32,000 bases of DNA from Cylindrospermopsis curvispora GIHE-G1 (GCF_014489415.1 NZ_CP060822.1:598311-630310); one strand, 5' to 3'. Positions 8,419-28,368 are shown, counted from the first letter of the stretch. Program-made: numbers and translations. The notes: generated from the sequence alone by a model not told the origin.

Positions 8419-8613
8419 TTATTCCTTATCAATCTTGGGAACAAAATCAGGACGATCCTTACTTTCCCAACCTGGGGGACGTTTAGAATTGTACCAAGCG
8501 ATTGAACCAATAGTAACCGCAGCAACAAAGCCAACCACATAGACTAAGGTGAAGGCCAATGGAAACTGATTACCAGCGGCCACGGGCGCTGCTTCTAGTA
8601 ATATTAAACTCAT
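8419..8613 (-). CDS. small single-pass membrane protein (64 aa), possibly a photosystem-associated small subunit
   Basis: One hydrophobic helix (LAFTLVYVVGFVAAVTIGSIAW) followed by a charged tail (YNSKRPPGWESKDRPDFVPK). Family assignment is uncertain. Confidence 0.55.
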   Translation of the reverse strand: MSLILLEAAPVAAGNQFPLAFTLVYVVGFVAAVTIGSIAWYNSKRPPGWESKDRPDFVPKIDKE

Positions 8614-8713
8614 GAGTGTTTTATCCCACTGTTTACAATATATGATTTTACTATAACTTTACCGAAAATCAAAGGATGAAAGCTCCTGCATTCATGGATG
8701 GGGACGAAATCGT

Positions 8714-11209: not shown

Positions 11210-11267
11210 AGTTTAAGTGAACTCCTGAGTCGAGTCAACCACAATAATATTAATGTAAAACTAACAA

Positions 11268-11289
11268 ATCTCTCTCTTTTGGGAGAGAG
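11268..11289 (-). terminator. candidate terminator after the TerB-like gene
   Basis: Stem ctctctctc/gggagagag of 9 bp (one G-U pair) with a tttt loop. On the minus strand it is followed by AUUUGUUAGUUUU. Confidence 0.45.
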
Positions 11290-11305
11290 TTTGGGCGAAT
11301 TTGCC

Positions 11306-11728
11306 TTAATTTTGTACATCCACCCAGCGACGGTAAAGTTTTTGAATTTTCCTGAGTAAGGAGGTGTAAATTGTTTGATTATGATCCGAGTTTTTAGCTA
11401 AATCCTGTATTCTTGTTAATAATTTAGCCTCTTCCGTGGCAACCTCACCATCACTGTAGATTAGCCCACTGATGGATTCAATTAAGTCTTGACACTGTTC
11501 CAAACTAGGGCGATCGCCTAAATACTCCCTTACCCATTGATAGCACTGATCTGGTTTAACTTGAACTAACTCGTAGAGCCAAGGTTTGATTTCTGGATCA
11601 GTAGAAAGACCCTTAGAATGGGCTATCTCTCTGAGATATTGTCTTTCCTCTGGCTGAATTCTACCATCAATCCAAGCTGCACCAATGAGAATTTTAACTA
11701 GATTTTTTACGTCGGGATGATTAACCAT
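11306..11728 (-). CDS. TerB-like (tellurite-resistance TerB family) protein
   Basis: Pattern typical of TerB-fold proteins: LIGAAWIDGRIQPEERQYL ... LIYSDGEVATEEAKLL. Confidence 0.65.
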   Translation of the reverse strand: MVNHPDVKNLVKILIGAAWIDGRIQPEERQYLREIAHSKGLSTDPEIKPWLYELVQVKPDQCYQWVREYLGDRPSLEQCQDLIESISGLIYSDGEVATEEAKLLTRIQDLAKNSDHNQTIYTSLLRKIQKLYRRWVDVQN

Positions 11729-11791
11729 TTTGCCTCCTCCAGTAGATTCGGACTCTGGTTAAATGGTACAATAGTTGGGCATATTTTAACT

Positions 11792-13132
11792 CTAATCCTT
11801 GTTTTTTCTTAAACGCACTAAGAAGAAACCGTCCATATTCTGTTGGTGTGGCCACAGCTTTAACCATCCAGGGGAGGAAACATCCAGAAAATCAAAGTTC
11901 GGCTTTTCCATCTCCCACTGGGGATTAACATGCAAAAATTCTCTAACTAGGTCCTCGTTCTCCTGGGGATGCAAGGTGCAAGTAGCATACACCAAAACTC
12001 CTCCCGGCTTGACAAAGTTGGCAGTATAGGATATGAGTTCTTTTTGTATGTGGGCAAGATCTCCTACAGAGCTAGGGTTTTGTCGCCATCGTGCATCAGC
12101 GTGACGATGCATGGTCCCTAAACCAGAACAGGGAGCATCTAACAGTACCCGGTCAGCCACATGGTGGAATTTGGTCAAATTACGACTGTCTCCAGGAAAA
12201 ATTTCAATAGATTGCAAACGGAGACGTTGGGCATTTTCAGTGAGTTTACGTAAGCGAGAAGGAGTGCGATCGCAGGCATATATTTTGCCATTATCGCCCA
12301 TTAATTCGGCAATGTGGGTAGTTTTTCCACCGGGGGCGGCACAAACATCAATGATCACCTCACCAGGCTTAGGATCCAGCAAATGACCAACTAACTGGGC
12401 CCCAGCATCTTGTATGCACCACCATCCCTCAGTGAACCCCGGTAAATTTTGAATTGGTCCAGCAGGGCCCACTAACCTTAACCCCTGGGGTAAGTGGGGT
12501 ATCCTATCCACCAAAATACCAGCCTTTTTAAAAACTGATTCCACCATTTTCACGGAAGCTCGAAGAGGATTTACCCGTAAATCAATCGTGGGAGTTTGAT
12601 TCATCCACTGACAGAGTTTTTCCGTTTCTTCCTGGCCCAATTGTGATAACCAAACCTCAATTACCCAATTGGGAAAGCTGTATAAAATACCTAGTCTTTC
12701 TACCAAATTTTCCGGGAGGATCAGGGGATCAGAGGTCTTTTCTAAAAGACGTATATATTGGCGCAAAAAACCATTCACAAAACCAGTTAACCCAAAGAAG
12801 CCATTTTCTTTTGCCAGTTGTACAGTAGTATTGACAGCAGCAGAAACGGGTATTTTTTGTTGGTAACGCAGTTGATACAAACCCAGATGCAAAATACATC
12901 GCAGATCCCTTGGCTGTTGTTGTGATTTTTTATCAGCAATTTGGTCAATGATTGCATCTAAGCTGCGTTGTCTCCTCACACTACCGTAGACCAATTCTGT
13001 CATTAATCGTCGGTCATGATCAGATAACTTAAACTTCTTTAAAGTGCGATCGATAGCAGTATCAGCATAGGCTCCTCGGTGTACTTCTCTGAGAGCAGTA
13101 AATGCTATTTGTCGAGTAGATAGTGTATTCAT
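11792..13132 (-). CDS. rsmB: 16S rRNA (cytosine967-C5)-methyltransferase
   Basis: NusB-like N-terminal domain followed by SAM-methyltransferase motifs DVCAAPGGKT, DAPCSGLGT and YATCTL. Confidence 0.9.
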   Translation of the reverse strand: MNTLSTRQIAFTALREVHRGAYADTAIDRTLKKFKLSDHDRRLMTELVYGSVRRQRSLDAIIDQIADKKSQQQPRDLRCILHLGLYQLRYQQKIPVSAAVNTTVQLAKENGFFGLTGFVNGFLRQYIRLLEKTSDPLILPENLVERLGILYSFPNWVIEVWLSQLGQEETEKLCQWMNQTPTIDLRVNPLRASVKMVESVFKKAGILVDRIPHLPQGLRLVGPAGPIQNLPGFTEGWWCIQDAGAQLVGHLLDPKPGEVIIDVCAAPGGKTTHIAELMGDNGKIYACDRTPSRLRKLTENAQRLRLQSIEIFPGDSRNLTKFHHVADRVLLDAPCSGLGTMHRHADARWRQNPSSVGDLAHIQKELISYTANFVKPGGVLVYATCTLHPQENEDLVREFLHVNPQWEMEKPNFDFLDVSSPGWLKLWPHQQNMDGFFLVRLRKNKD

Positions 13133-13170
13133 AAAAGGATCCTTAAACCATCTTTAACATGCACGGAACA

Positions 13171-13197
13171 AAGGGAATTGCCCTAGGCAATTCCCTT
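13171..13197 (-). terminator. strong hairpin between the lipoprotein gene and rsmB
   Basis: aagggaattgcc-cta-ggcaattccctt forms a perfect 12-bp stem. The minus-strand downstream tail UUGUUCCG is only weakly U-rich. Confidence 0.45.
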
Positions 13198-13231
13198 ATT
13201 GCACGGTTGTCAAAGGTGCTGTGATATTGAT

Positions 13232-14092
13232 TTATCTTCTTCTGCTACCAAAACCGCCAGAGCGCCGAATGCCAGAAGAACGAGATCCGCTACCAAAACT
13301 ACTACCAGAATTGCGCCGCAGAGAGCTGGACCCCCCGGATGAACGGAGATTACTACCCCCAAAGCCAGATCCGGTGGCTCTACCACCAGTATTAGTCCGA
13401 TTTGTCAATCCACTATTTGATCTAAGAGATCCCGTAGTGCGGAAAACCGTACGATTTCTCACAGCTGCAGGTGGTTGATTATAGCGACTTTGATAACTAG
13501 AAACTGCTGCATTATAGGTAGAACCATATCCACCATGACCATAAATACCACCAGGTTGATAAGCGGGGGGTACGTAGTACTGAGGTCTGAATAACATATT
13601 ACCAATAGCTTGACCCGCTATATTACCAGCTACAGCAGCTGCGAAAGGAGTCCAGAAACTAGACTCTTGACGGACAAAAACCGTTTCCTGCTGTCCGGTT
13701 TGAGGATTACTTCTGGTTTCGGTAACATTATGGACATACTCAATTTTAAAGTCTTCGGTTATATATAAGGCTGGTTGTCCATTTTCCACCTTTAAATAAC
13801 TTTTTTTGCCTTCTTTGACCTCCTCGTCAGTTAAACGAGCCATTTGTAGTTTCTCTGTGGCAAAAGTTGGTGGTTGATTGCCTAGTAAAAATAGGGTATA
13901 CTCACCATTGGCATCGTTATAAGTAACCTGTTGTACTTGATACTGTCCATCATTGAGTTTAGTGGGGGTTGCACTTTGACTACCATTGGAATAAGTGGTA
14001 TTTTGGGAAGCTCCCCCACAAGCAATGGTTGTTAAGCACAAAGTTAGGGCTAAACAAACAATTGTCAGTTTACGCATTATAGTCTTGACCAT
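13232..14092 (-). CDS. putative lipoprotein with a Gly/Ser/Arg-rich C-terminal tail
   Basis: Lipobox LTTIAC after MVKTIMRKLTIVCLALTL. The last ~65 aa are low complexity (GSGFGGSNLRSSGGSSSLRRNSGSSFGSGSRSSGIRRSGGFGSRRR). The start could be 14092 or 14077. Confidence 0.6.
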   Translation of the reverse strand: MVKTIMRKLTIVCLALTLCLTTIACGGASQNTTYSNGSQSATPTKLNDGQYQVQQVTYNDANGEYTLFLLGNQPPTFATEKLQMARLTDEEVKEGKKSYLKVENGQPALYITEDFKIEYVHNVTETRSNPQTGQQETVFVRQESSFWTPFAAAVAGNIAGQAIGNMLFRPQYYVPPAYQPGGIYGHGGYGSTYNAAVSSYQSRYNQPPAAVRNRTVFRTTGSLRSNSGLTNRTNTGGRATGSGFGGSNLRSSGGSSSLRRNSGSSFGSGSRSSGIRRSGGFGSRRR

Positions 14093-14157
14093 TTGAATAA
14101 TTTGATTTTTCCAGGGGGTTATTTTTGATTGCCAATAACTCAAGGTTAACAAGAAAC

Positions 14158-15505: not shown

Positions 15506-16684
15506 CTATCTTCGGGATCTTATCGGTAAAGATCCTGGCTCAACAGCTAAATTTACAGTTGTACCATTACGCTCCACTTCTATTGTCAGAGGAGTTCCAA
15601 TTTGACTATTTTCTACTATTTTTTGCACTTCTTCAACTTTAGTAATTAATTGTTTGTTAATACTCTTAATTATATCCCCTGCTCTCAATCCTCCCCGCGC
15701 TGCTGGTGATTGAGGAACAATTCTAACTAAGAATACTCCTTTATCAGTAATAATATTGACCCTATCACCAAATCTACTAACTATTCTATCTTTAATCTCA
15801 GGAGTGAGGGTGATCATTTCTACTCCCAAATAAGGATGATCAACGCGACCATTGGCAATTAATTCTTGGGCAATTTTTTTGACCGTGTTAATGGGAATAG
15901 CAAAACCTAAACCTTGAGCACCTTGAATAATCGCAGTGTTCATGCCTATAGCTTCTCCGCGAGCATTTAAAAGCGGACCACCGGAATTACCTGGATTAAT
16001 CGCTGCATCAGTTTGTAAGTAATCTACCCGTTTATCGCTAGCACCAATGTCAGTGCTAGACCGATCTGTGGCGCTGATAATGCCAGAAGTTACGGTATTA
16101 TTTAAACCCAGGGGATTACCAATAGCAATTACTGCTTCTCCAGGTTGTAAATCACTGGAATTACCTAGAGTTAAAGTGGGTAGATTTTTAGCATTAATTT
16201 GAATAACTGCCACGTCTGTAACTGCATCTTCTCCCAAAACCTTACCATCAAAACTACGTCCATCTTTCAGGGTTACTGTTACCTGATCCGCACCGTCTAC
16301 CACGTGGGAATTAGTTAAAATTTGACCGGAGGCATTAATGATAAATCCTGAACCACTACCTCTTTCTACCCTTTGTTCTGGTCGGGGAAGAGCATCACCA
16401 AAAAATCTACGTAAGAATGGGTCGGAAAACTCCTCTGGCACTTGAGAGGTGACGGTTCTGGCAGAATCAATACGGACAACCGCACTTCCCACTTTTTGCA
16501 CTACTTGAACAATAAAATTGGGATCACCACCAACAGGATCTACTACCACAGTGTTGGACTTGGTGGTTGATTCAACTTGAGGGTTGATTTTTTGTGGTGT
16601 GAGATTTCTGCTGTTTAAATTGGAGCAGCCTGTCACAAGTACGATTAGTCCAGTCATCAATATTGAGCGTTTTAATTGGGCCAT
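15506..16684 (-). CDS. HtrA/Deg-family serine protease with a PDZ domain
   Basis: Catalytic-triad contexts TNSHVV, DVAVI and GNSGGPLLN, followed by a C-terminal PDZ domain. The start at MAQLKRS gives a lipoprotein-like signal (LVTGCS). An alternative ATG lies at 16723. Confidence 0.88.
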   Translation of the reverse strand: MAQLKRSILMTGLIVLVTGCSNLNSRNLTPQKINPQVESTTKSNTVVVDPVGGDPNFIVQVVQKVGSAVVRIDSARTVTSQVPEEFSDPFLRRFFGDALPRPEQRVERGSGSGFIINASGQILTNSHVVDGADQVTVTLKDGRSFDGKVLGEDAVTDVAVIQINAKNLPTLTLGNSSDLQPGEAVIAIGNPLGLNNTVTSGIISATDRSSTDIGASDKRVDYLQTDAAINPGNSGGPLLNARGEAIGMNTAIIQGAQGLGFAIPINTVKKIAQELIANGRVDHPYLGVEMITLTPEIKDRIVSRFGDRVNIITDKGVFLVRIVPQSPAARGGLRAGDIIKSINKQLITKVEEVQKIVENSQIGTPLTIEVERNGTTVNLAVEPGSLPIRSRR

Positions 16685-16817
16685 GGAAGGATGAATGATA
16701 GGAGAAAATAGGTAATTGATCATGAATTTTGTGGTCGAGCTGGTGGGGGGTTGGAAGCATAAGCTAGGATAGCGGAAAATTTGCTAGGATGATCCATCAC
16801 TATCTGTGTTCAGATTT

Positions 16818-18688: not shown

Positions 18689-18714
18689 ACCAGCGGAGGA
18701 ATTTTTCCGCTGGT
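18689..18714. terminator. bidirectional terminator hairpin between convergent genes
   Basis: Perfect 9-bp stem accagcgga/tccgctggt with an 8-nt loop. T-rich sequence follows on both strands. Confidence 0.6.
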
Positions 18715-18767: not shown

Positions 18768-19616
18768 TCACGGGATAGCGTTTCTCAATTGTTTAAGGGT
18801 ACGACCAATACCAACGAAACTTGCGTCTTGAGACAGACGTTTGAGAGTAGGTGGTTTACTTTCGATGACAATACCGTTGTAAGCAGTAATGGCAGCACTG
18901 AGCTTGTCAATGTTGACGCTAAATGCCGCACCCGCTTGTGCAACTGTATTATTACCTTTCCAATCCTTAGTGCTAACTAACATAGCACCGGGTGAAGATG
19001 CAGTAGAAGGTGAGAATAAACCATTCAGGGCATTAACAAGTGCGATCGCGAGCTGGGAACTAATACCCGCCGATGTTAAAGCTGCTGTTATTCTCGCAGC
19101 AGCTTCCGTTACCCCTGGTCGTGCAAGCACGAGGGTGACCAAGTCAGTAGTATTAGCGCTTGTGCCAAGCACTTGAACTATATTGGGAACTAGCTGGTTT
19201 AGGGCTGATTGAACTTCTTGTGTAACCGCTAGGGTTGCACTTTGCCCCTGTCTGGTTACAATTATGCTCTCTGCATTAGGTATGAAAGTGACACCGCTTC
19301 CACCACTAGAACCTCCTGGAGTTGTTTTCCCGGTTGGTGGTTGTACAGGATCTTCTGGGTTTGGTGGTTCCGGTTGTGGTTGTACAGGATCTTCTGGGTT
19401 TGGTGGTTCCGGTTGTGGTCGTTGTACAGGATCTTCTGGGTTTGGTGGTTCCGGTTGTGGTTGTACAGGATCTTGTGGAATTGATGGTGGTGAAGGCAAT
19501 ACATTTCCACTAGGACCTCCTGGTGTTGTGCTACCTCCCTCACTGGTCAATTGCAAAGATGCTAATAAGAACGGGACTAGACTTAAGGTAAAAATGAGAC
19601 TTTTGGGTTTTAACAT
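18768..19616 (-). CDS. secreted protein with a Pro-rich tandem repeat and an Ala/Ser/Thr-rich C-terminal domain
   Basis: Signal peptide MLKPKSLIFTLSLVPFLLASLQL, then PQPEPPNPEDPVQ repeats, then a ~180-aa domain I do not recognise. Confidence 0.65.
   Translation of the reverse strand: MLKPKSLIFTLSLVPFLLASLQLTSEGGSTTPGGPSGNVLPSPPSIPQDPVQPQPEPPNPEDPVQRPQPEPPNPEDPVQPQPEPPNPEDPVQPPTGKTTPGGSSGGSGVTFIPNAESIIVTRQGQSATLAVTQEVQSALNQLVPNIVQVLGTSANTTDLVTLVLARPGVTEAAARITAALTSAGISSQLAIALVNALNGLFSPSTASSPGAMLVSTKDWKGNNTVAQAGAAFSVNIDKLSAAITAYNGIVIESKPPTLKRLSQDASFVGIGRTLKQLRNAIP
19339..19478. repeat. 39-bp tandem repeat (one 42-bp unit), about 3.6 copies
   Basis: Units start at 19339, 19378, 19417 (with a +3 nt cgt insertion) and 19459, and are near identical. 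Confidence 0.9.
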
Positions 19617-19650: not shown

Positions 19651-20637
19651 TTACTTAGGTAAAAAATTGAACCCATAGCTGACGCTCAAAGAAAGTATGG
19701 TGCCACCAGGGCTATTATTAGTGATATCCGCACCCTGGGCTGTAATTGTTAAAGGTAAGGTAGGTATGGGAACATAGGAAGCACCAAGGTTAAAACCCAC
19801 TCCACTCCAACCGAAACCTACACCCAATTGGGGTTGAACCTGCATACCCACACTGCCAAACACACCTGTGCTAGCAAATTCTTGTCTAAACGGACCACCC
19901 CCAGCACCGAAAGAGACGGAGATAGGCATTTTATTAACTTCATCATCTGGCTGTAATAGGGAGTAACTAGTAACTACACCATAAACTCCAGAAGGGGTAA
20001 CACCATCAGTACCATACTGGGCAAAATAGTTCCAACCTGCAGCTACGGATACCTGGTTGTTACCCTGGGCATAGACAAGACGATGAACTTTCAGGTCAAA
20101 ACTACCATTGGCACCAAATTTTCTAATACTATTGTTGCTGAAGCCCAATTCCAAGGCAGCAAGTTTGTTAGAGTCCCCTATACCAGCGCCAAGGTTAATG
20201 CCGCCATCATACTGGCCATCTCTAAGTTTACCGGGGGTAGTACCTGTTATTCCTATAAACGCATCACCGGTATTAGCACCAAAAGCACTTACACCCGCAA
20301 AAGTAAGTCCGGGGGGATAGGTGGGCTTTTGCACCTCCCGTGGTTTGGTTTTTACCAGAGGTTCAATTAGCAATTCTTGCCGAATTCTTCTTACTTCTTC
20401 CGGACTGATATTCTCAGCTTGTGAAATCTGTGGGGGAACGGATCTGGTTTCGTAGCCATTCTGATTCGTAACACCCTCTTCCGCAAATACAAGATCTGGA
20501 GACAGTACCAAAGTTAAAAGGATACTGGGCAAGGTTAGGGAGATTGCTGAAAAAACTAAACCCCGGTGATTGTAACCTGATGTAAAATAAGGCTGTGTGC
20601 TGTTCAAAATATTACTCCTCACTGGACATTCTACCAT
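19651..20637 (-). CDS. putative outer-membrane beta-barrel protein
   Basis: Signal sequence, then a Gly/aromatic-rich region with alternating hydrophobic residues in short strands (SLSVSYGFNF, VSVAAGWNYF, GVGFGWSGVGFNLGASY). An aromatic residue lies near the C-terminus. Confidence 0.45.
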   Translation of the reverse strand: MVECPVRSNILNSTQPYFTSGYNHRGLVFSAISLTLPSILLTLVLSPDLVFAEEGVTNQNGYETRSVPPQISQAENISPEEVRRIRQELLIEPLVKTKPREVQKPTYPPGLTFAGVSAFGANTGDAFIGITGTTPGKLRDGQYDGGINLGAGIGDSNKLAALELGFSNNSIRKFGANGSFDLKVHRLVYAQGNNQVSVAAGWNYFAQYGTDGVTPSGVYGVVTSYSLLQPDDEVNKMPISVSFGAGGGPFRQEFASTGVFGSVGMQVQPQLGVGFGWSGVGFNLGASYVPIPTLPLTITAQGADITNNSPGGTILSLSVSYGFNFLPK

Positions 20638-20756: not shown

Positions 20757-22283
20757 TTATGGTTTAGGTGTTGTTTCGGAATTGTTTGCTGCTGGAGAAG
20801 ATTTTTTGGTATAACGGCGTTCAAAAATTTCTGCGGATTTCTGATAGTCCACCAAGGCGGCTGAAAAATTCCCAGTCAGGGTGTATGCTGTAGCACGATT
20901 AATGTAGGCATTAAAATCATCTGGATCGATTATAATCGCTAAGGTTGATACCTTAATAGAAGCAGCGTAGTCCTTTAGATAGTTAAATACATCACTCTGA
21001 ATCGTATAACCATAACTGTTATTAGGGTCTAGACGAATAGCTTGTTTAGAAGATTCCAGTGCTGCTTGGTACTTACCCAGTTTAATGTAAGCCATACCTT
21101 GATGGGCATAAGCTATAGAATAACTGGGATTGAGCCGAATCGCGCGATTAAAATCCTCAAGAGCGGCCTGATCATTTTGTAACCAGATATAAGTCCAACC
21201 ACGATTCAGATAACCATCCAAATAATTTGGATCCAAGGCAATTACCTGGTTAAAGTCCAAAAGGGCTTCTTCGTATCTTCTAAGCCAACTGAGAGCATAT
21301 CCACGCTTGAAATAAGCTTCTGCATATTTGGGGTCAATTTTGATTGCCTGATCAAAATCATCTAGGGACTCTTTATAACTAAACTGGTCTAGCTTAGTAA
21401 TACCTCTGGCATAAAAATCTCGTGCAGATTGAGGAGAGTTTAAGCGCTGCTGTGGCACTTCCCCAGTGGCGGTGGTATTCCTTTGAATTGGTAGCTCTTT
21501 GAGCAAGGGGTTGTTGAAGTTCAAAAAAGTATTAATGGGAATGCCAGCATTAAATCCCGTTTTCTGTGATACTATTTCTCCCGTTTCTGTTTTACTCTTA
21601 TTCGAGGTGTCTGCTAACCCGTGAATTCCCACCACCCTACCCTTAATATCAAAAACTGGGCCCCCGCTATTACCGGTCAGAGTTATAGCATCGTAAATTA
21701 AACTATAACCATTGATAGAAGTTCTACCGCGAGAAAGAACGATCCCTTTAGTAAAACTGAAGTCCCGAGCTGACCCAATTTTAGTGAACACAGCTGGAAA
21801 TCCGCCCACAAATACATCGGATGCTTCTGTCATTTGGTCAGAATCACCTAAATTGGCTGTGGCATATTCCTGTGTAGCTACAAAGCTAACTAGGGCTAAA
21901 TCAGGATCATTTTTGGTTGACTGTAGGACTATAATGTCTTGTGATTTAATAGGGTATTCTTTGCCATCATTTGTTCTTACAGAATACGCAATGTCTTTAG
22001 CGCAGACGATTTTTCCAGGTCTGTCTATAATATCACAGACCACGTGATTGGCGGTTAGTACAGAATAACGATTACCTTGTTTGGCAATAATTACTCCTGA
22101 ACCACCAGGAGTAACGTCACCCTCCGTATTAATTTGTACAGATGTCTTCTTGGCAATTTGTGCTATATCTTGGATACTGATAGTATCAGCAGCTATTGAA
22201 GTAGTAGATAAAACAGCTGTTACAGCAGTTATAAGAGTTGTTGCTAGTAAGGAGTTATTTGTTATTCCAAGTTTAAAATTCAT
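20757..22283 (-). CDS. secreted trypsin-like (S1, Trypsin_2-type) serine protease fused to C-terminal TPR repeats
   Basis: Triad contexts TANHVV, DLALVSF and GNSGGPVFD. These are followed by about six TPR units (AEAYFKRGYAL, LDGYLNRGWTY, SIAYAHQGMAY ...). Confidence 0.8.
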   Translation of the reverse strand: MNFKLGITNNSLLATTLITAVTAVLSTTSIAADTISIQDIAQIAKKTSVQINTEGDVTPGGSGVIIAKQGNRYSVLTANHVVCDIIDRPGKIVCAKDIAYSVRTNDGKEYPIKSQDIIVLQSTKNDPDLALVSFVATQEYATANLGDSDQMTEASDVFVGGFPAVFTKIGSARDFSFTKGIVLSRGRTSINGYSLIYDAITLTGNSGGPVFDIKGRVVGIHGLADTSNKSKTETGEIVSQKTGFNAGIPINTFLNFNNPLLKELPIQRNTTATGEVPQQRLNSPQSARDFYARGITKLDQFSYKESLDDFDQAIKIDPKYAEAYFKRGYALSWLRRYEEALLDFNQVIALDPNYLDGYLNRGWTYIWLQNDQAALEDFNRAIRLNPSYSIAYAHQGMAYIKLGKYQAALESSKQAIRLDPNNSYGYTIQSDVFNYLKDYAASIKVSTLAIIIDPDDFNAYINRATAYTLTGNFSAALVDYQKSAEIFERRYTKKSSPAANNSETTPKP

Positions 22284-23095
22284 TTTTTCTGTTCTTGAAT
22301 AAAATTAACCACAGTAGCAATGGGGATAGCCCAACTTAAGGACTCGATTCTACGGTAATCTGCTTTGTTGGGTTTAGTTCCATCAGTAAAAATAAAGGCA
22401 TTAATACCTTGAAAGGGATACTTTAATAACCCACTGATACCAACAAGTTCCCCCCGTTGATTTAAAACGGGCCCTCCACTCATACCCTGAGTAAAATCAT
22501 TGGTGAAACCCACCTTATAACCACCAACTAGGGTTTTGCCGAGATACATCTTGATTTTACCCGCTTGTAGCTTGAAAGCGCCCAGTCCCCAATCCCGGGT
22601 TGTTTCTACTTTGGTGATAGTATCACCATTAAAAACAAAATGCCAAGCTGGAAACCCAGATACATACACCACTTCCCCCTCAGATATATTTGGTGACTGG
22701 GAAAACTGCACAGATTGATAGTTTTCCCCACTGGTAAATTCCACCAGTGCTAGGTCTAAAGAATGAGGATTGACTGTTGGTACTTGCTGTGCCTTGTAAA
22801 TCTTACCATCAGGTGTTAAAACTTCATAACCACTCTCAGGACTATCCACTACCACGTGATCATTAGTCAAAACCCTGTAGTTTTGTCCTTTACGGTCGAT
22901 AATCACTCCTGACCCAGATCCAGATTTAGTAAAAATTCTTACTGTTACTTTACTGGCAGTCCTGGCAGCGGCAAATTCAAATCCGGGATGGGGTGTGGAA
23001 GCTAGGAAGTTGGGTACAGTATGAGGATACACAATGGGGGAAAAAATTGTTGCCAGTAATGCCACAGAAAATCTAAAAGATATGGGGTAAAACAC
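22280..23095 (-). CDS. secreted trypsin-like serine protease
   Basis: Triad contexts TNDHVV, DLALVEF and GMSGGPVLN. The start is a GTG at 23095. The stop overlaps the next gene's start in ATGA (22280-22283). Confidence 0.72.
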   Translation of the reverse strand: MFYPISFRFSVALLATIFSPIVYPHTVPNFLASTPHPGFEFAAARTASKVTVRIFTKSGSGSGVIIDRKGQNYRVLTNDHVVVDSPESGYEVLTPDGKIYKAQQVPTVNPHSLDLALVEFTSGENYQSVQFSQSPNISEGEVVYVSGFPAWHFVFNGDTITKVETTRDWGLGAFKLQAGKIKMYLGKTLVGGYKVGFTNDFTQGMSGGPVLNQRGELVGISGLLKYPFQGINAFIFTDGTKPNKADYRRIESLSWAIPIATVVNFIQEQKK

Positions 23096-23149: not shown

Positions 23150-23767
23150 TTACAGTTTGAACCTCCGATCAGAGTTTGCTGGTGGTCTTATTTGGTCGGA
23201 ATCCTGGGGTTTTAGGTCATTTTGGTCGAGAACCTCACTTAATTCAAGTCGCAGACGACTGCTTGTTTCTCGGACAACACCTGCGCTGGAACCTTGTTTA
23301 CTAATTCCCGTCAGTTGCGCCAGAATCTCATTGGCTTTCTGAGCATTTTCTGGTTTAAGAGTAAACAAGAAATTCTGCGCATTACAACCTATTCTACTTG
23401 TTATAGAAGCTATACAAATAACCGTTTCATTGTTAACACGACCTTTAATTAGAGCTACATTTTTCAGACGACCACCATTTTGTTTCACAGCTCGATTAAA
23501 TTTAGGAGTTACCATTTGACAACGGTTTTGAGGAGTATAGTTATCTCCAAAATATTTAGAACCCGCGTCTGTCCAAGTAATTACGGTAATTGGACTACCA
23601 CCGGGACGCTGGCCAACCGTAGCCCAATTGCCATTGCCTTGGGAAACACATGTAAACTTGGTGCCATTGTAACTTTCAGTAGGGGGCTTAGCTTGTACCC
23701 CAGACTGAATCAAAGTTCCTGCTAGGGCTAAATTAGCAACTAGAACTGTCGTGGATAGTTTCATCAT
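23150..23767 (-). CDS. COP23-like secreted protein, paralog 1
   Basis: Signal peptide followed by a core I recognise as the COP23 (circadian oscillating polypeptide) family: YNGTKFTC...WATVGQRPGG..I..W......FG....P..RC..VT..FN.....GG.L.......G.....VIC........C....LFTLKPENA. The core has four conserved Cys. Confidence 0.7.
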   Translation of the reverse strand: MMKLSTTVLVANLALAGTLIQSGVQAKPPTESYNGTKFTCVSQGNGNWATVGQRPGGSPITVITWTDAGSKYFGDNYTPQNRCQMVTPKFNRAVKQNGGRLKNVALIKGRVNNETVICIASITSRIGCNAQNFLFTLKPENAQKANEILAQLTGISKQGSSAGVVRETSSRLRLELSEVLDQNDLKPQDSDQIRPPANSDRRFKL

Positions 23768-23797: not shown

Positions 23798-24493
23798 TTA
23801 CAAACCAGGTTGATTACGTCGGTTATTTTGAACTTTTGGCCTTTTAACAGGTGAAGAAGATGAGCGTCGAGCTGCTAGCACATCACTCAGTTTGACTGTA
23901 ACCCGTTGGCGACTACTTCTTGTTTCGGTAATCACACCTCCTTCCGATCCCTTCTTGCTAATCTCCAGGAGTTGAGATAAAACCTTATCAGGGTTTTTGG
24001 CATTTTCCGGTTTCAGGGTAAATAGGGTATTTTTATCTTGACAACCATTATCTCGGTCGGAAATTACACAAATAACAACCTGACCATTAACATTGCCACT
24101 GGTTAATAAAACATCTTGAAGCCTACCACCACTCTCTTGTACTGCTGTGTTGAACTTGCGGGTGACAATTTGGCACCGGTTTTCGGGGGCAAATTGGCTA
24201 CCAAAATATTTGGAAGCTGATTGAGTCCAAATAATCACAGGTATTGGTTGGCCACCAGGGCGCTGACCAACGGTAGCCCACTTGCCATTACCCTGGGATA
24301 CACAGGCAAATTTCGTCCCATTATAGCTTTCATCACCAGTCGGTTCTGAGTCTGATGGGTTGTCGGATGCAGGAATAGTGGGGGGGTTAGGGGGGTTATC
24401 TCCACTTTCCACTGGCACAGCTCTCACCATGCTAGGATGCCAACCGGCTGATACAGCTATAAGAGTAGCTAAAACTGTTGCTGAAAATTTCAT
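23798..24493 (-). CDS. COP23-like secreted protein, paralog 2
   Basis: Same core as paralog 1, with an added Pro/Asp/Ser-rich linker after the signal peptide. Confidence 0.7.
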   Translation of the reverse strand: MKFSATVLATLIAVSAGWHPSMVRAVPVESGDNPPNPPTIPASDNPSDSEPTGDESYNGTKFACVSQGNGKWATVGQRPGGQPIPVIIWTQSASKYFGSQFAPENRCQIVTRKFNTAVQESGGRLQDVLLTSGNVNGQVVICVISDRDNGCQDKNTLFTLKPENAKNPDKVLSQLLEISKKGSEGGVITETRSSRQRVTVKLSDVLAARRSSSSPVKRPKVQNNRRNQPGL

Positions 24494-24543
24494 ATATCCT
24501 GTTATTTTTTACCAAAGAAGTGTGAAAAGTTCTGAGTTTTCCA

Positions 24544-25200
24544 TCACAGGCCACCTGTAGTGGGTCTGGGAGTTTTGCGGGTTCTGGGTGTTTGTTGAGG
24601 CAAGCGCTTGGCTGCTTTGGAGATAACTTCACCTAGGTTTACTGTGGCACGAGAACGACCTCTTGTTTCAGTAATAACCCCTGCACTGGAACCTCTAATA
24701 CTAATTTGAGTCAGGGTTTCTAAAACCCTATTAGGGTCTTTGGCATTTTCGGGTTTCAGGGCAAACAGGGTATTGTTACCATCACAACCTCCTGTGTCCT
24801 TTAAAGAAAGTGCGCAAATAACAGTTTTGTCACCGACTTCTCCCCAGGTTAAAACTACGTCGTAAAGATTGCCAGCGCTATCTTCTACGGCTTGGTTGAG
24901 ATTGGCTGTGACGATTTCACAACGGCTCTTGGGATTATAATTTTCGCCAAAGGACTGTGCTCCTTTTTTTGTCCACACAATTATGGGAATTGGTCTACCA
25001 GCAGGGCGCTGTCCCACTGTGGCCCAGTTACTACCTTGAGCTACACAAGCAAATCTCGTCCCATTGTATTGACTGGGATCGCTCGGATCAAAGAATGCGT
25101 CATCAGATGATTGGGCTTTTAATTGACCATGTCCTAAACCCAAAATGCTTGATAGGGCTAGGGTAGCCACTAAAAATTTTGCTGAGAATTTGCTACTCAT
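24544..25200 (-). CDS. COP23-like secreted protein, paralog 3
   Basis: The start at MSSKFSAKF (ATG at 25200) is preceded by AAGGAGG. The ORF-track extension to 25275 runs through an intergenic hairpin. Confidence 0.72.
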   Translation of the reverse strand: MSSKFSAKFLVATLALSSILGLGHGQLKAQSSDDAFFDPSDPSQYNGTRFACVAQGSNWATVGQRPAGRPIPIIVWTKKGAQSFGENYNPKSRCEIVTANLNQAVEDSAGNLYDVVLTWGEVGDKTVICALSLKDTGGCDGNNTLFALKPENAKDPNRVLETLTQISIRGSSAGVITETRGRSRATVNLGEVISKAAKRLPQQTPRTRKTPRPTTGGL

Positions 25201-25241
25201 AATATCTCCATACCTCCTTATTTTTATTTTTTGCCGATGGC

Positions 25242-25268
25242 GCGTGGAAAGTTTTGGCTGTTCCACGC
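25242..25268 (-). other. intergenic stem-loop between COP23 paralogs 4 and 3
   Basis: Perfect 8-bp stem gcgtggaa/ttccacgc with an 11-nt loop. No U-tract follows on the transcribed strand. Confidence 0.4.
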
Positions 25269-25298
25269 CTTCCACACTTTTGCAATAGTTGCCAGTCC

Positions 25299-25958
25299 TT
25301 AAACAGAGCCTTTAGTTGATCTGGGAGTTTTGCGGGTCTTGGGTGTTTCTCGGGGCAAGCGTTTGGCCGCTTGCGATACAACCCTACCTAAGTTTACACT
25401 TAACCGACCTCTTGTTTTAGTTTCAGTAACAACCCCTGCACTAGAGCCTTTAATACTAATTTGAGTCAGGGTTTCTAAAACCTTATTAGGATCCTTGGCA
25501 TTTTCCGGTTTCAGCGCAAACAGAGTATTGCTACCATCACAACCTCCTTCGTCTTTTAAAGAAAGTGCGCAAATAACAGTTTTGCCATCATCAAGTTTAC
25601 CCCAGGTTAGGACTACGTCATAAAGATCACCAGCGCTGTCTTCCACTGCTTGGTTAAGATTGGCTGTGACGATTTCACAACGGCTCTTGGGATTATAATT
25701 TTCGCCAAAGGACTGTGCTCCTTTTTTTGTCCACACAATTATGGGAATTGGTTTACCGCCAGGGCGCTGTCCCACTGTGGCCCAGTTACTACCTTGGGCC
25801 ACACAGGTAAATTTAGTCCCATTGTATTGACTGCGATCGCTCGGATCAAAAAATTCATCATCTGATGATTGGGCTCTTAATTGACCATGTCCTAAACCCA
25901 AAATGCCTGATATAGCTAGGGTTGCTGCTAAAAACGCGGCTGAGAATTTGCTGTTCAT
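25299..25958 (-). CDS. COP23-like secreted protein, paralog 4
   Basis: Very similar to paralogs 3 and 5 at both protein and DNA level. Confidence 0.72.
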   Translation of the reverse strand: MNSKFSAAFLAATLAISGILGLGHGQLRAQSSDDEFFDPSDRSQYNGTKFTCVAQGSNWATVGQRPGGKPIPIIVWTKKGAQSFGENYNPKSRCEIVTANLNQAVEDSAGDLYDVVLTWGKLDDGKTVICALSLKDEGGCDGSNTLFALKPENAKDPNKVLETLTQISIKGSSAGVVTETKTRGRLSVNLGRVVSQAAKRLPRETPKTRKTPRSTKGSV

Positions 25959-26013
25959 AATGTCCCCTTGATCTAGTGTTGGTTTTAATGGTGAGATCTT
26001 GCTGGAGCAAAAT

Positions 26014-27237
26014 CTACAGGTTACCTGGTTTGGTGGGACGGGGGCCAGTTCTTAAAGCTCTGAGTGTGCCGGTAGTAGGATTGTACTCATAGGCCTTAGC
26101 GGTTAAGTCTGGGTGGGGACTGACACAATATTGTCTATCACCTATAAAGATGCCAATTACTGGAGTAGAGCTGCAGGAAACAGCTGTTAATTGCCATTTT
26201 CTTAACAGGGCTAAATTCGGGTCGTTGGATGATACTGGTTTCCTGTTCCCTGTAATTTGGATTCCATCTATTTCTACTTCACCTAAAATCCCTGAGTCGT
26301 CAATAGTATTGCCCAGTGCGGAAATGGCAACACCGGTTGTGGCGGCATTATAAATGTTGTAACGACCATTGTTGACGATAACATTGCCACCTGGATTACT
26401 CCGGGTGCCTAGATCGGGGGAAGAATTAAGAGTGATGACTATGCCATCCCGTTCGTTATTCTGAACCACATTGCCGCGTAACAAGGGTTGAGCTGAATCG
26501 GTGATCACTATTCCGTCTCTATTATTAGTGATTTGATTTTTGGTCAAGACTGGTGTGGAATCGTCATTAATGCTTAATCCAAAGCCACTCTTCTCAAATA
26601 CATTATTGCTGATTTTCCCCTTGCTGGATTTAGTTATGGAAATACCGTTGCCATTGTTTGCCGTAAATTGGTTGTTCTCAACGGTAGGATCCCCACCAGC
26701 TGTGACAAATATCCCCTCTCGCAAACTCTGAGCAAATGTGCTATTTTTAATAACTGGGTTAGTGGACTCTACCCATACACCTGTTCCTCTGGGATTTCTA
26801 TTAGTCACGGTTACACCGGCAATTGTGCTGTCTTGTTCTGCCAGAATTGTCACATTTTGTTTGGCAAAACTACGACTGTTGTAGTCACCACCACCGGAAA
26901 TAACTACGGTCTTTCCTTTAGTAGATTCATCACCACGCAAGGTGACCCCCTGTTTAATTGTGAGGGGGAAGGACTCATTACTGTAACTACCTGGAGCTAA
27001 CTGAATTATGGTTCCCGGTTGGGCTTGCTCTAAGGCAAAGGTAATAGTTTTGTAGGGTTTTGCTCCGGAGTTACCAGTGTTTACAACGTTAACGCCATTA
27101 ATGGGATCTACATAGATAACTGGCGCCACTGGAGGCAATTGAGCGCCCACGGGAAGTGTAACTGACAAAGAACCGCAGATGGTCAGGGTTGCCATAACTA
27201 CGGAAGATTTTAGATGTGATTTTGATTTAATGTTCAT
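26014..27237 (-). CDS. secreted right-handed parallel beta-helix protein (DUF1565-like)
   Basis: Signal peptide, then IYVDP..G....GS...PYKTITFALEQAQPGTIIQLAPGSY...FPL.I..GVTLRG. This is followed by repeated NN/GI.I beta-helix rungs (NNGNGISI, NNRDGIVIT, NNERDGIVIT). Confidence 0.75.
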   Translation of the reverse strand: MNIKSKSHLKSSVVMATLTICGSLSVTLPVGAQLPPVAPVIYVDPINGVNVVNTGNSGAKPYKTITFALEQAQPGTIIQLAPGSYSNESFPLTIKQGVTLRGDESTKGKTVVISGGGDYNSRSFAKQNVTILAEQDSTIAGVTVTNRNPRGTGVWVESTNPVIKNSTFAQSLREGIFVTAGGDPTVENNQFTANNGNGISITKSSKGKISNNVFEKSGFGLSINDDSTPVLTKNQITNNRDGIVITDSAQPLLRGNVVQNNERDGIVITLNSSPDLGTRSNPGGNVIVNNGRYNIYNAATTGVAISALGNTIDDSGILGEVEIDGIQITGNRKPVSSNDPNLALLRKWQLTAVSCSSTPVIGIFIGDRQYCVSPHPDLTAKAYEYNPTTGTLRALRTGPRPTKPGNL

Positions 27238-27252
27238 AATGTTCCTAAATGA

Positions 27253-27326
27253 CTCCCTAATTTTGTTGTGTACATCCCAGAGAAAATTGACTAGGGTTTA
27301 ATTGTGAAAGTTCCCGATGCTGATGA
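27253..27326 (-). promoter_or_regulatory. conserved upstream element, copy A (5' of the beta-helix gene)
   Basis: Aligns without internal gaps to 28083-28155 at about 75% identity by my hand count. Exact blocks: taatttt, tacatcc, ctagggtttaa, gctgatga. Confidence 0.35.
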
Positions 27327-27417
27327 CTTATAGTACACTAGTACGGAGTGTGGAGGATTTGGTTTCTAAAGCGGTTCTATAATTTTTACTGCTGGCCATT
27401 TTGTTACCAACTGTGCG

Positions 27418-28077
27418 TCACAGAGTACCTTTAGTGGGTCTATTTACGGGAGTTGTGCGAGTTTTGGGTGTTTGTTGAGGCAATCGCTTGGCTGCTTGTG
27501 AGACAACTTTACCTAGGTTTACACTCAAACGACCTGTTGTTTCACGAACAGTCCCTGCACTAGAACCCTTAATACTAATTTGAGTCAGGGTTTCTAAAAC
27601 CCTGTTAGGGTTCTTGGCATTTTCGGGTTTCAGCGCAAACAGGGTATTGTTACCATCACAACCTCCTTCATCCTTTAAAGAAAGTGCGCAAATAACAGTT
27701 TTGCCATCAGTAAGTTTACCCCAGGTTAAGACTACGTCGTAAAGATTACCAGCACTATCTTCTACCGCTTGGTTGAGGTTAGCTGTAACTAGTTCACAAC
27801 GGCTCTTGGGATTATAATTTTCGCCAAAGGACTGTGCTCCTTGTTTTGTCCACACAATTATGGGAATTGGTCTACCACCGGGGCGCTGTCCTACTGTGGA
27901 CCAGTCGCTACCTTGGGCTACACAGGTAAATTTAGTTCCGTTATATTGACTGGGATCGCTGGGATCAAAGAATGCGTCATCTGATGATTGGGCTTTTAAT
28001 TGACCATGTTCTAAACCCAAAATGCCTGATAGGGCTAGGGTTGCTACTAAAACTGTGGCTGAGAATTTGCTGTTCAT
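27418..28077 (-). CDS. COP23-like secreted protein, paralog 5
   Basis: The start at MNSKFSAT (ATG at 28077) is preceded by AGGAG. It has the same core as paralogs 3 and 4. Confidence 0.72.
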   Translation of the reverse strand: MNSKFSATVLVATLALSGILGLEHGQLKAQSSDDAFFDPSDPSQYNGTKFTCVAQGSDWSTVGQRPGGRPIPIIVWTKQGAQSFGENYNPKSRCELVTANLNQAVEDSAGNLYDVVLTWGKLTDGKTVICALSLKDEGGCDGNNTLFALKPENAKNPNRVLETLTQISIKGSSAGTVRETTGRLSVNLGKVVSQAAKRLPQQTPKTRTTPVNRPTKGTL

Positions 28078-28082
28078 AATAT

Positions 28083-28155
28083 CTCCTAATTTTATTCCGT
28101 ACATCCTAGCAAGAAACTGCTAGGGTTTAAGTATGAAAATGCCTGACGCTGATGA
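28083..28155 (-). promoter_or_regulatory. conserved upstream element, copy B (5' of COP23 paralog 5)
   Basis: Homologous to 27253-27326, as described for copy A. Confidence 0.35.
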
Positions 28156-28368
28156 TTTTTACTGACTCAACCGCAAACTATTATATACTGCTGCTCTGAC
28201 CTTTACTACAAAGGCACCTCTTATATTTACTGAACCCGCCCAGGGAGATGACAAGGACTTATCACCTACAAACAAAAAGTCTTTTAACTAGCATCTAATA
28301 TTGTACTATGCGTGAATTTACTCCGTCAAGAGTAAAAAGTAGAAAATTTAGCATTTTCTACTTTCCTC

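Follow-up and report, generated by a model that had tools for sequence, protein, structure and literature searches.

What does it mean when secreted proteins of unrelated fold, encoded side by side, end in the same short tail? This question is raised by a 32,000-nucleotide stretch of Cylindrospermopsis curvispora GIHE-G1 (GCF_014489415.1 NZ_CP060822.1:598311-630310; hereafter the window), in which COP23 paralogs and a DUF1565 beta-helix protein share a C-terminal tail within one gene cluster. The initial annotation had described this tail as basic, Pro/Thr-rich and ending R-P/S-T-x-G-x-L, had taken it for a sorting, anchoring or processing signal, and had named the neighbouring TPR-protease as its plausible reader. 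Our analysis showed that the conserved core of the tail is a disordered linker that leads to Gly and a single hydrophobic residue (L, I, F or W), the latter forming the free C-terminus, and that its second carrier is a small two-cysteine module, which in this cluster is joined to the beta-helix and in other cyanobacteria occurs as a protein of its own.

Unrelated proteins of the cluster share a C-terminal tail

Translation of the open reading frames (ORFs) gave the C-termini of four COP23 paralogs and of the DUF1565 beta-helix protein exactly as they had been described. The carriers were unrelated in fold as judged by Pfam, which assigned all five COP23 paralogs of the window to COP23 (PF14218; 85-113 bits, gathering cut-off 27) and the protein at 26014-27237 to DUF1565 (PF07602, 132 bits) and Beta_helix (PF13229, 82 bits). 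Reading of the sequences showed that all tail carriers begin with a signal-peptide-like N-terminus. There was no hydrophobic stretch near the C-terminus of the carriers, so the tail lacks a hydrophobic C-terminal helix and is not of the PEP-CTERM type, as the initial annotation had stated.

The last two to three residues were kept in the orthologs of both families while the linker diverged, which bears out the idea of a shared, selected C-terminal signal on unrelated folds. At the DNA level, the tail codons of the beta-helix and COP23 genes were not near-identical (for example, CGT vs AGA for Arg) and the DNA downstream of them was unrelated, so that the resemblance lies at the protein level and does not reflect a recent DNA copy. 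Recent recombination as the origin of the common tail was excluded on the same two grounds. Conversion of a patch of about 9 nt among the tails may have occurred.

The tail is conserved in its Gly and its hydrophobic last residue

The core of the tail was delimited by the very end being conserved across orthologs and the linker being variable. The beta-helix protein had 45 orthologs (394-423 residues; Dolichospermum, Anabaena and Aphanizomenon-type), every one of which had a hydrophobic end after Gly, as G-G-L or near it, with L in 97% at the C-terminal position (position 0), G in 91% at -1 and G in 84% at -2, and the preceding 10-15 residues were variable. The nearest DUF1565 paralogs, 561-564 residues long, never carry the motif; an SLH domain forms their C-terminus. 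Among Nostocales COP23 proteins (n = 117), L was found at position 0 in 91% and G at -1 in 88%, and about 90% ended G-L (last three residues: GGL 57, RGL 28, SGL 15).

The same tendency extended over the COP23 family. When the family was clustered at 50% identity into 150 representatives (P0121-P0270), 109 of them had I (41), F (33), L (21), W (13) or M (1) as the last residue, compared with a background of 26.7% in unrelated ORFs (binomial p = 1e-31). Gly directly preceded the last residue in 53 of the 150, and Pro, Ser, Thr and Asn abounded in the segment before it. In the related loci that we fetched, the combination of a hydrophobic last residue and Gly at -1 or -2 was found in 39/56 COP23 proteins and 17/19 proteins with the two-cysteine module, compared with 8/247 other ORFs (Fisher p = 8e-28 and 6e-19, respectively, with kinship ignored).

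The basic, Pro/Thr-rich form of the motif proved to be limited to few lineages. A regular expression for it matched only Cylindrospermopsis/Raphidiopsis proteins and one Dolichospermum-like COP23 protein (...KPTTGGL), and none of the 150 COP23 representatives, indicating that the R-P/S-T part is specific to few lineages; the exact motif was therefore given up as a general signal and replaced by G-hydrophobic-COOH. Basic charge was likewise ruled out as a conserved feature: COP23 linkers are acidic or neutral in the majority of lineages, the last 25 residues having on average a net charge of -1, and the basic tail of the window belongs to one Nostocales clade only.

In an AlphaFold2 (AF2) model of cop3 based on a 57-sequence alignment, the core was predicted with a pLDDT (predicted local distance difference test) of about 85, while the last 18 residues stayed below 50. 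A model of the two-cysteine module with its tail (16 sequences) likewise had a confident core and a tail with pLDDT <50. Docking of the tail back onto its own domain found no support, the tail being of low confidence in both models. A tail that is predicted to be flexible and is not predicted to fold back is what one would look for in a short linear motif recognized by a second protein. No significant PDB match was obtained for the COP23 fold itself.

Several further observations concern the carriers. The charge of the linker was inverted between clades, being strongly basic (K/R-x-G-L) in Dolichospermum/Raphidiopsis and mostly acidic elsewhere, and Asp was present at -3 in 23% of COP23 family tails (e.g. 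D-T-G-F, D-N-G-I). Other proteins carried such an end, namely a secreted DUF3747 protein (L025 16302-16940, minus strand; ...NSLQGGL; related loci are numbered with L) and a membrane Ser/Thr kinase with the periplasmic C-terminus ...SQPSGGI (L033 7621-9663, plus strand), whose gene lies directly upstream of COP23-S1-S1-TPR. Divergent plasmid homologues of COP23 in another gene context had no G-hydrophobic tail (L047 7896-8450 in Calothrix sp. PCC 7716; L048 7839-8345 in Nostoc carneum). Within the window, the first COP23 paralog has an atypical end, and this F-K-L type of end is retained in relatives (L001, L006 and L023 end ...GFKL).

A two-cysteine module is the second carrier

The initial annotation had named the beta-helix protein as the second carrier of the tail. 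This protein does bear it, but the true carrier, recognized with our own hidden Markov model (HMM), is a small unannotated module. The protein consists of the beta-helix (residues 47-314) followed by a linker, the module and the tail. The module, about 55 residues long, has two invariant cysteines (W-x-L-x4-C ... Y-C-V-x-P-H-P-x-L ... Y-x-Y-N-x-x-T-G-x-L). Neither Pfam nor NCBIfam had a model for it; AF2 predicted one helix and four strands (pLDDT 82-88), and no significant fold match was found in the PDB.

Searches with our HMM found the module in all DUF1565 orthologs and at the end of some COP23 fusion proteins. In Dolichospermum-type loci the S1-TPR protease also ended in one or two copies of it, which are missing from the S1-TPR protease of the window. 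Stand-alone module proteins were secreted proteins of 140-340 residues encoded directly upstream of COP23 (L025, L028, L037/38, L041-43, L046), and they too ended in a linker and G-hydrophobic. The number of module copies ranged from one to three, with three in the stand-alone protein of L028. Coordinates of the module elsewhere include L003 13812-15779, L028 1909-2925, L042 5335-5907 and L046 9048-9950.

A recurring gene neighbourhood with a PDZ-less protease pair

We collected 46 related loci from genomes and metagenomes and labelled their ORFs with our own HMMs; a scan of genome contigs with a single protein gave two loci, and a scan of viral contigs gave none. The recurring order was [module protein] - COP23 (at least one copy) - S1 (about 275 residues) - S1-TPR, and it was found in the Raphidiopsis and Dolichospermum types, in Scytonema (L046) and in L025, L028, L029/30, L033, L035 and L049, where the contig of L028 stops after S1 and L049 has S1 with no S1-TPR after it on the contig. 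Counted over the lineages with enough flanking sequence, the S1 and S1-TPR genes followed COP23 in about 9 of 12. The short S1 and S1-TPR proteases themselves carried the same tail in some loci.

Fusion proteins linked the families independently of the tail. P0173 and P0194 combine DUF1565 with COP23, and the database protein P0251 combines COP23, Trypsin_2 and TPR in one chain; a COP23+GUN4 fusion (P0157) was also seen. In L037/38 the S1 gene lies on the opposite strand, beside a CHAT-TPR protein and a TpsB-type transporter. Where a lineage has no S1-TPR gene next to the COP23 and module pair, the pair had other neighbours: a CHAT-TPR protein and a ShlB/FhaC-type transporter in L037 (5045-9601, minus strand), and in L042 (3322-5130, plus strand; 8501-13492, minus strand) an SppA (S49) peptidase together with a TPR protein of 1663 residues.

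Both proteases of the cluster have an intact catalytic motif. In the short S1 protease (22280-23095) the His lies in ...NDHVV, the Asp in ...LDLALV and the Ser in GMSGGP, while the S1-TPR protease (20757-22283) has GNSGGP and six TPR repeats at residues ~287-490. Among PDB sequences, both S1 domains were closest to the protease domains of HtrA, DegP, DegQ, HhoA and DegS, and the His, the Asp and G-[MN]-S-G-G-P were kept in every lineage examined, in line with the trypsin fold and triad of the HtrA/Do family. The PDZ domain of that family is missing, as Pfam gave no PDZ hit in either protease, and the NCBIfam HtrA models (degP_htrA_DO) scored 52-59 bits, far below the family threshold of 416. 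PDB matches of the TPR part were generic, and NlpI was among the weak NCBIfam TPR matches. Asn at position 6 of TPR3 was invariant, and aromatic residues on the TPR concave face numbered 6-8 in the Dolichospermum/Raphidiopsis clade vs 3-6 in the remaining group.

It is established that the PDZ domains of HtrA proteases recognize hydrophobic C-termini and that TPR domains bind peptides with a free C-terminus (EEVD with Hop, SKL with PEX5). With PDZ missing, TPR present and TPR domains able to read such peptides, the proposal of the initial annotation that the TPR-protease reads the tail was a reasonable one, and the conserved gene order and the single chain of P0251 speak for it.

Different families end in the same residue within a locus

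Within each locus, different families ended in the same residue, which was L in all Nostocales-type loci. In L025 the module protein ended ..NSL, COP23 ..NEL and S1 ..MGL; the ends in L028 were ..SGL, ..GGL and ..RGL, and those in L046 were ..TGL and ..TSL. In L029/30 the common residue was F, with COP23 ending ..SMF, S1 ..LVF and S1-TPR ..FMF, and F was also found in L037/38 (..GGF, ..MGF) and L039-43 (..QGF, ..TGF). The terminal residue of COP23 was labile, with 60 parsimony changes over 136 tips. The agreement within loci is suggestive of a shared, co-evolving receptor pocket.

What the tail may do

We tentatively favour a reading, quite possible in our judgment though short of probable, in which the tail is a C-terminal docking or degron motif recognized by one receptor common to the carriers, for which the PDZ-less HtrA-like protease pair is the likeliest candidate. 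The tail would be a short linear motif, with a flexible linker of some 10-40 residues before a Gly and a single hydrophobic residue with its free carboxylate, borne by the secreted non-catalytic members of a conserved periplasmic gene module ([two-Cys-module protein] - COP23 (one to five) - S1 protease - S1-TPR protease) and sometimes by the proteases themselves. We infer a single reader within this gene module, to which the tail would dock the proteins. The protease pair would presumably serve as that reader, through its TPR domain or its substrate cleft. Through docking, the proteins would be kept close to the protease or handed over to it, to be processed or turned over in a regulated way, and degradation would be the presumed outcome.

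This docking reading fits what has been reported on COP23. In Cyanothece RF-1, according to a passage of a preprint, both the synthesis and the degradation of COP23 are rhythmic, the latter being light- and Ca2+-dependent (bioRxiv 10.64898/2026.04.23.720389, its ref. 53), and degradation of the kind described in that passage would call for a dedicated route. The reading also fits the presence of the Anabaena COP23 homologue Alr2313 in the exoproteome (PMC4390845). A more far-reaching version, which we regard as doubtful, would make Gly-hydrophobic-COOH a dedicated address code of the cyanobacterial periplasm: TPR would take the place of PDZ in capturing the C-termini of COP23 and module proteins, this capture would be the degron route of rhythmic COP23 degradation, and the terminal residue would co-evolve with the receptor in each lineage.

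A number of results fail to favour docking to the protease pair or weigh against it, and the part of the initial annotation that made the TPR-protease the reader gained no backing from them. The concave-face positions of the TPR repeats were no more conserved than the others (mean entropy 1.67 vs 1.41). The charge of the groove was only weakly related to that of the tail (rho -0.61, with no correction for phylogeny), and non-groove charge was related at least as strongly; the residues of the S1 pocket did not follow a terminal L, F or I. These three comparisons are compatible with the protease pair as the reader and with another reader alike. In L039-43, COP23 and the module protein carry G-F tails with no adjacent S1 gene. 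P0251 may be a gene-calling artefact and not a true fusion, since an internal signal-peptide-like segment remains in it. As the L-lineages fall into a single COP23 clade, with L037 and L042 in another, the within-locus agreement of terminal residues rests on about three independent lineages by a conservative count (p ~0.005-0.02). Finally, the tails on the DUF3747 protein and the Ser/Thr kinase hint at a more general reader.

Such a reader is the substance of one alternative, namely that ordinary PDZ proteases of the HhoA/HhoB/HtrA or Ctp/Prc type read the tail as a general tag of the periplasm, with the cluster proteins as abundant clients. PDZ domains of HtrA and Prc proteases are known to bind hydrophobic C-termini, and the S1-less loci as well as the tails on the DUF3747 protein and on the periplasmic end of the kinase are consistent with it. 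A canonical HtrA/HhoA-type protease gene even lies in the window (15506-16723, minus strand), 4 kb from the cluster, and was labelled s1 by our HMM; in other loci, however, it is unlinked to the cluster. Since, moreover, the adjacency of S1 and S1-TPR is conserved, fusion proteins occur, and the agreement of terminal residues within loci suggests a dedicated partner that co-evolves, we consider this alternative unlikely. The tail could also be an envelope anchor in place of an SLH domain as cell-wall anchor, its charged linker binding peptidoglycan, lipopolysaccharide or membrane and its hydrophobic end inserting or capping. The nearest DUF1565 paralogs do have SLH where this subfamily has module and tail, the linker is strongly basic in the clade of the window, and COP23 was first described in the cell membrane, according to a citation in the same preprint (bioRxiv 10.64898/2026.04.23.720389). 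The linker is, however, acidic or neutral in most COP23 lineages, with Asp frequent at -3, so that the conserved element is not electrostatic; a single hydrophobic residue after Gly-Gly is insufficient for membrane insertion, and a terminal residue (L, F, I, W) fixed per lineage points to a protein pocket, which makes an anchor rather improbable.

Self-assembly, in which the tail plugs into the COP23 domain or module of a neighbour to build a head-to-tail periplasmic or surface matrix while the proteases only trim, would suit a flexible tail with no predicted binding to its own domain. It would also suit the presence of the tail on both COP23 and the module protein as abundant structural partners, and a module that occurs in one to three copies and on a protease as well. 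But L029/30 and L035 keep the tail without a module protein, and for this reason the module is not a universal reader; in L029 the tail is also on both proteases. There was no computed sign of a pocket in COP23, and neither fold matched a PDB structure, so we regard such a matrix as quite improbable. It is far less credible still that the resemblance has no function and reflects low-complexity composition, paralog ancestry or short gene conversion. Three of the four canonical COP23 tails of the window do belong to recent paralogs (83-86% identical), and the Raphidiopsis brookii ortholog (...RGNSIIRPGL) lacks the R-P-T-K stretch that COP23 and the beta-helix protein share here, so that local coincidence or micro-conversion is possible for this stretch. 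Against this, the last residues are kept over hundreds of orthologs and in two or more families while the linkers drift, the pattern occurs at 3% among background ORFs, and the tail codons differ between genes.

Relation to known C-terminal signals

By analogy, the tail would work in principle like EEVD-TPR, PTS1-PEX5, OMP-DegS PDZ (OMP, outer-membrane protein), Prc-NlpI and HbYX/GQYL, and it appears to be a member of none of them. A close parallel in form is offered by the ligands of TPR carboxylate clamps (EEVD-Hop/CHIP for Hsp70/Hsp90, SKL-PEX5), which are likewise short free C-terminal motifs on disordered tails of unrelated folds. Here, too, the conservation is anchored at the C-terminus, the tail has pLDDT <50, and a TPR protein is encoded alongside the carriers. 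The present motif differs in being Gly plus a hydrophobic residue, neither acidic nor SKL, in its place in the cyanobacterial periplasm and in the fusion of the TPR to a serine protease, and the TPR groove is not preferentially conserved. Recognition of C-termini by HtrA proteases (DegS PDZ with OMP Y-x-F; DegP/DegQ PDZ1) shares with it a periplasmic HtrA-like protease and hydrophobic-ended partners; unlike those systems, the proteases of the cluster are without PDZ, one of them has TPR, and the motif is G-hydrophobic and sits on a folded, natively secreted protein, in contrast to the beta-signal that a misfolded OMP exposes.

Prc (Tsp)-NlpI of E. coli likewise joins a periplasmic protease to a TPR component and selects substrates by a non-polar C-terminus. 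Prc, however, is an S41 protease with PDZ and NlpI a separate lipoprotein, whereas here the protease is S1/HtrA-like with the TPR on the same polypeptide, and the homology is that of generic TPR only. The proteasome-activator motifs (HbYX; GQYL of Mpa/Bpa) also dock unrelated proteins into a protease pocket by a terminal hydrophobic motif on a flexible tail, but they are cytoplasmic and involve another protease class and another motif, so that the analogy is one of principle only.

The sorting signals PEP-CTERM, LPXTG and GlyGly-CTERM (exosortase, sortase and rhombosortase, respectively) are comparable as C-terminal signals on unrelated secreted proteins of one genome. They need a transmembrane helix and a basic cluster after the motif, while the present tail stops after one hydrophobic residue. 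No hydrophobic stretch was found in the tails, and no NCBIfam CTERM model matched them. P-T-x-G occurs in few lineages only and has no helix after it, and the cluster holds no sortase-type gene; where Gly-Gly is present, it is followed by one residue and the stop codon, unlike in GlyGly-CTERM proteins. The tail does not resemble an OMP beta-signal or the DegS Y-x-F end, either, in which a terminal aromatic residue belongs to an alternating hydrophobic strand that closes a barrel: positions -1 and -2 are occupied by Gly or other small residues, after a disordered stretch of 10-40 residues in which Pro, Ser and Thr abound. Type I secretion, whose substrates have no N-terminal signal peptide and usually carry RTX repeats, does not fit, given the signal-peptide-like N-termini of all carriers, and no RTX repeats and no ABC exporter were found in the cluster. 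In the papers searched we found no mention of a COP23 C-terminal motif, of the module or of a periplasmic TPR carboxylate clamp, and the curated family models of Pfam and NCBIfam include none for COP23 tails or the module.

Organization of the cluster and neighbouring genes

ORF calling placed the tail-bearing genes in a block of ten genes, all on the minus strand, with intergenic gaps of 23-180 nt and a 4-nt overlap of the S1 stop with the S1-TPR start. In the direction of transcription the order is cop5, DUF1565 beta-helix, cop4, cop3, cop2, cop1, S1, S1-TPR, a beta-barrel-like gene and a proline-repeat gene. Pfam annotated five COP23 domains, DUF1565/Beta_helix, two Trypsin_2 domains and TPR repeats in the block, and the nearest database relatives were from Cylindrospermopsis/Raphidiopsis (92-97% identity). 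The coordinates are given in Table 1. Judged by its consensus, the promoter-like site upstream of cop5 could be the start of the ten-gene unit.

Table 1. Positions of the cluster genes, their tails and putative control sites in the window.
Feature	Position	Strand	Remarks
Promoter-like site TTGACG-18-TACAAT upstream of cop5	28300..28329	-	Consensus scan only
cop5, COP23 paralog 5	27418..28104	-	Likely start ATG 28074; signal peptide; Pfam COP23 E=1.3e-24
cop5 tail	~27421-27480	-	Ends ...PVNRPTKGTL; tail codons read
Secreted DUF1565 right-handed beta-helix protein	26014..27237	-	DUF1565 E=2.5e-38 and Beta_helix
Two-Cys module, ~55 residues, unannotated	26053..26226	-	Own HMM
Tail of beta-helix/module protein	26017..26052	-	RTGPRPTKPGNL-COOH; pLDDT <50; ends ...GPRPTKPGNL
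cop4, COP23 paralog 4	25299..25958	-	ORF, Pfam; tail ~25302-25355, ends ...KTPRSTKGSV
cop3, COP23 paralog 3	24544..25275	-	ORF, Pfam; likely start ATG 25200
cop3 disordered tail	~24547-24600	-	Ends ...KTPRPTTGGL
cop2, COP23 paralog 2	23798..24493	-	ORF, Pfam; tail ~23801-23860, ends ...NNRRNQPGL
cop1, COP23 paralog 1	23150..23767	-	Atypical end ...SDRRFKL: terminal L, without Gly
Short secreted S1 protease, HtrA/Do-like, without PDZ	22280..23095	-	Pfam Trypsin_2 E=2.8e-22
Secreted S1-TPR protease, HtrA-like, without PDZ	20757..22283	-	Pfam Trypsin_2 and TPR_1
Possible accessory gene, secreted beta-barrel-like protein	19651..20637	-	Ends ...YGFNFLPK
Possible accessory gene, secreted protein with PEDPVQPQPEPPN repeats	18768..19616	-	Ends ...LKQLRNAIP
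Strong terminator-like hairpin, 9 pairs and T-rich tract, directly after last gene	18689..18714	-	Consensus scan only

The last two genes of the block, neither of which had a family model in Pfam or NCBIfam, form a possible accessory pair. The pair adjoins the cluster in all Dolichospermum-type and Raphidiopsis-type loci, and its second gene is always paired with the first. Raphidiopsis-type loci (L006 and the window) have the pair downstream of S1-TPR, and Dolichospermum-type loci have it upstream of DUF1565. Elsewhere it was located at L003 4080-9275, where it is duplicated, L005 2869-4632 and L006 10920-11720, and the second protein ends ...LKQLRxAI[PK] across loci.

Two further genes of the window, both on the minus strand, have unusual C-termini. 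A class A penicillin-binding protein of 831 residues (8714-11209) ends in four near-identical tandem repeats TSTRRRRRRRYDVQTVPSSTEENT, and a 306-residue protein (13232-14152) carries a hydrophobic segment at its N-terminus and a long C-terminal region rich in Gly, Ser and Arg (...GSRSSGIRRSGGFGSRRR).

Significance

The analysis provides three experimental handles, namely a conserved C-terminal tag, a partner module that is undescribed in the databases and a conserved PDZ-less pair of HtrA-like proteases. If the proposed docking is true, it would give a simple annotation rule for the members of this periplasmic system, and it would add a case of a bacterial protease that reads the C-termini of its substrates by TPR repeats or another non-PDZ device.

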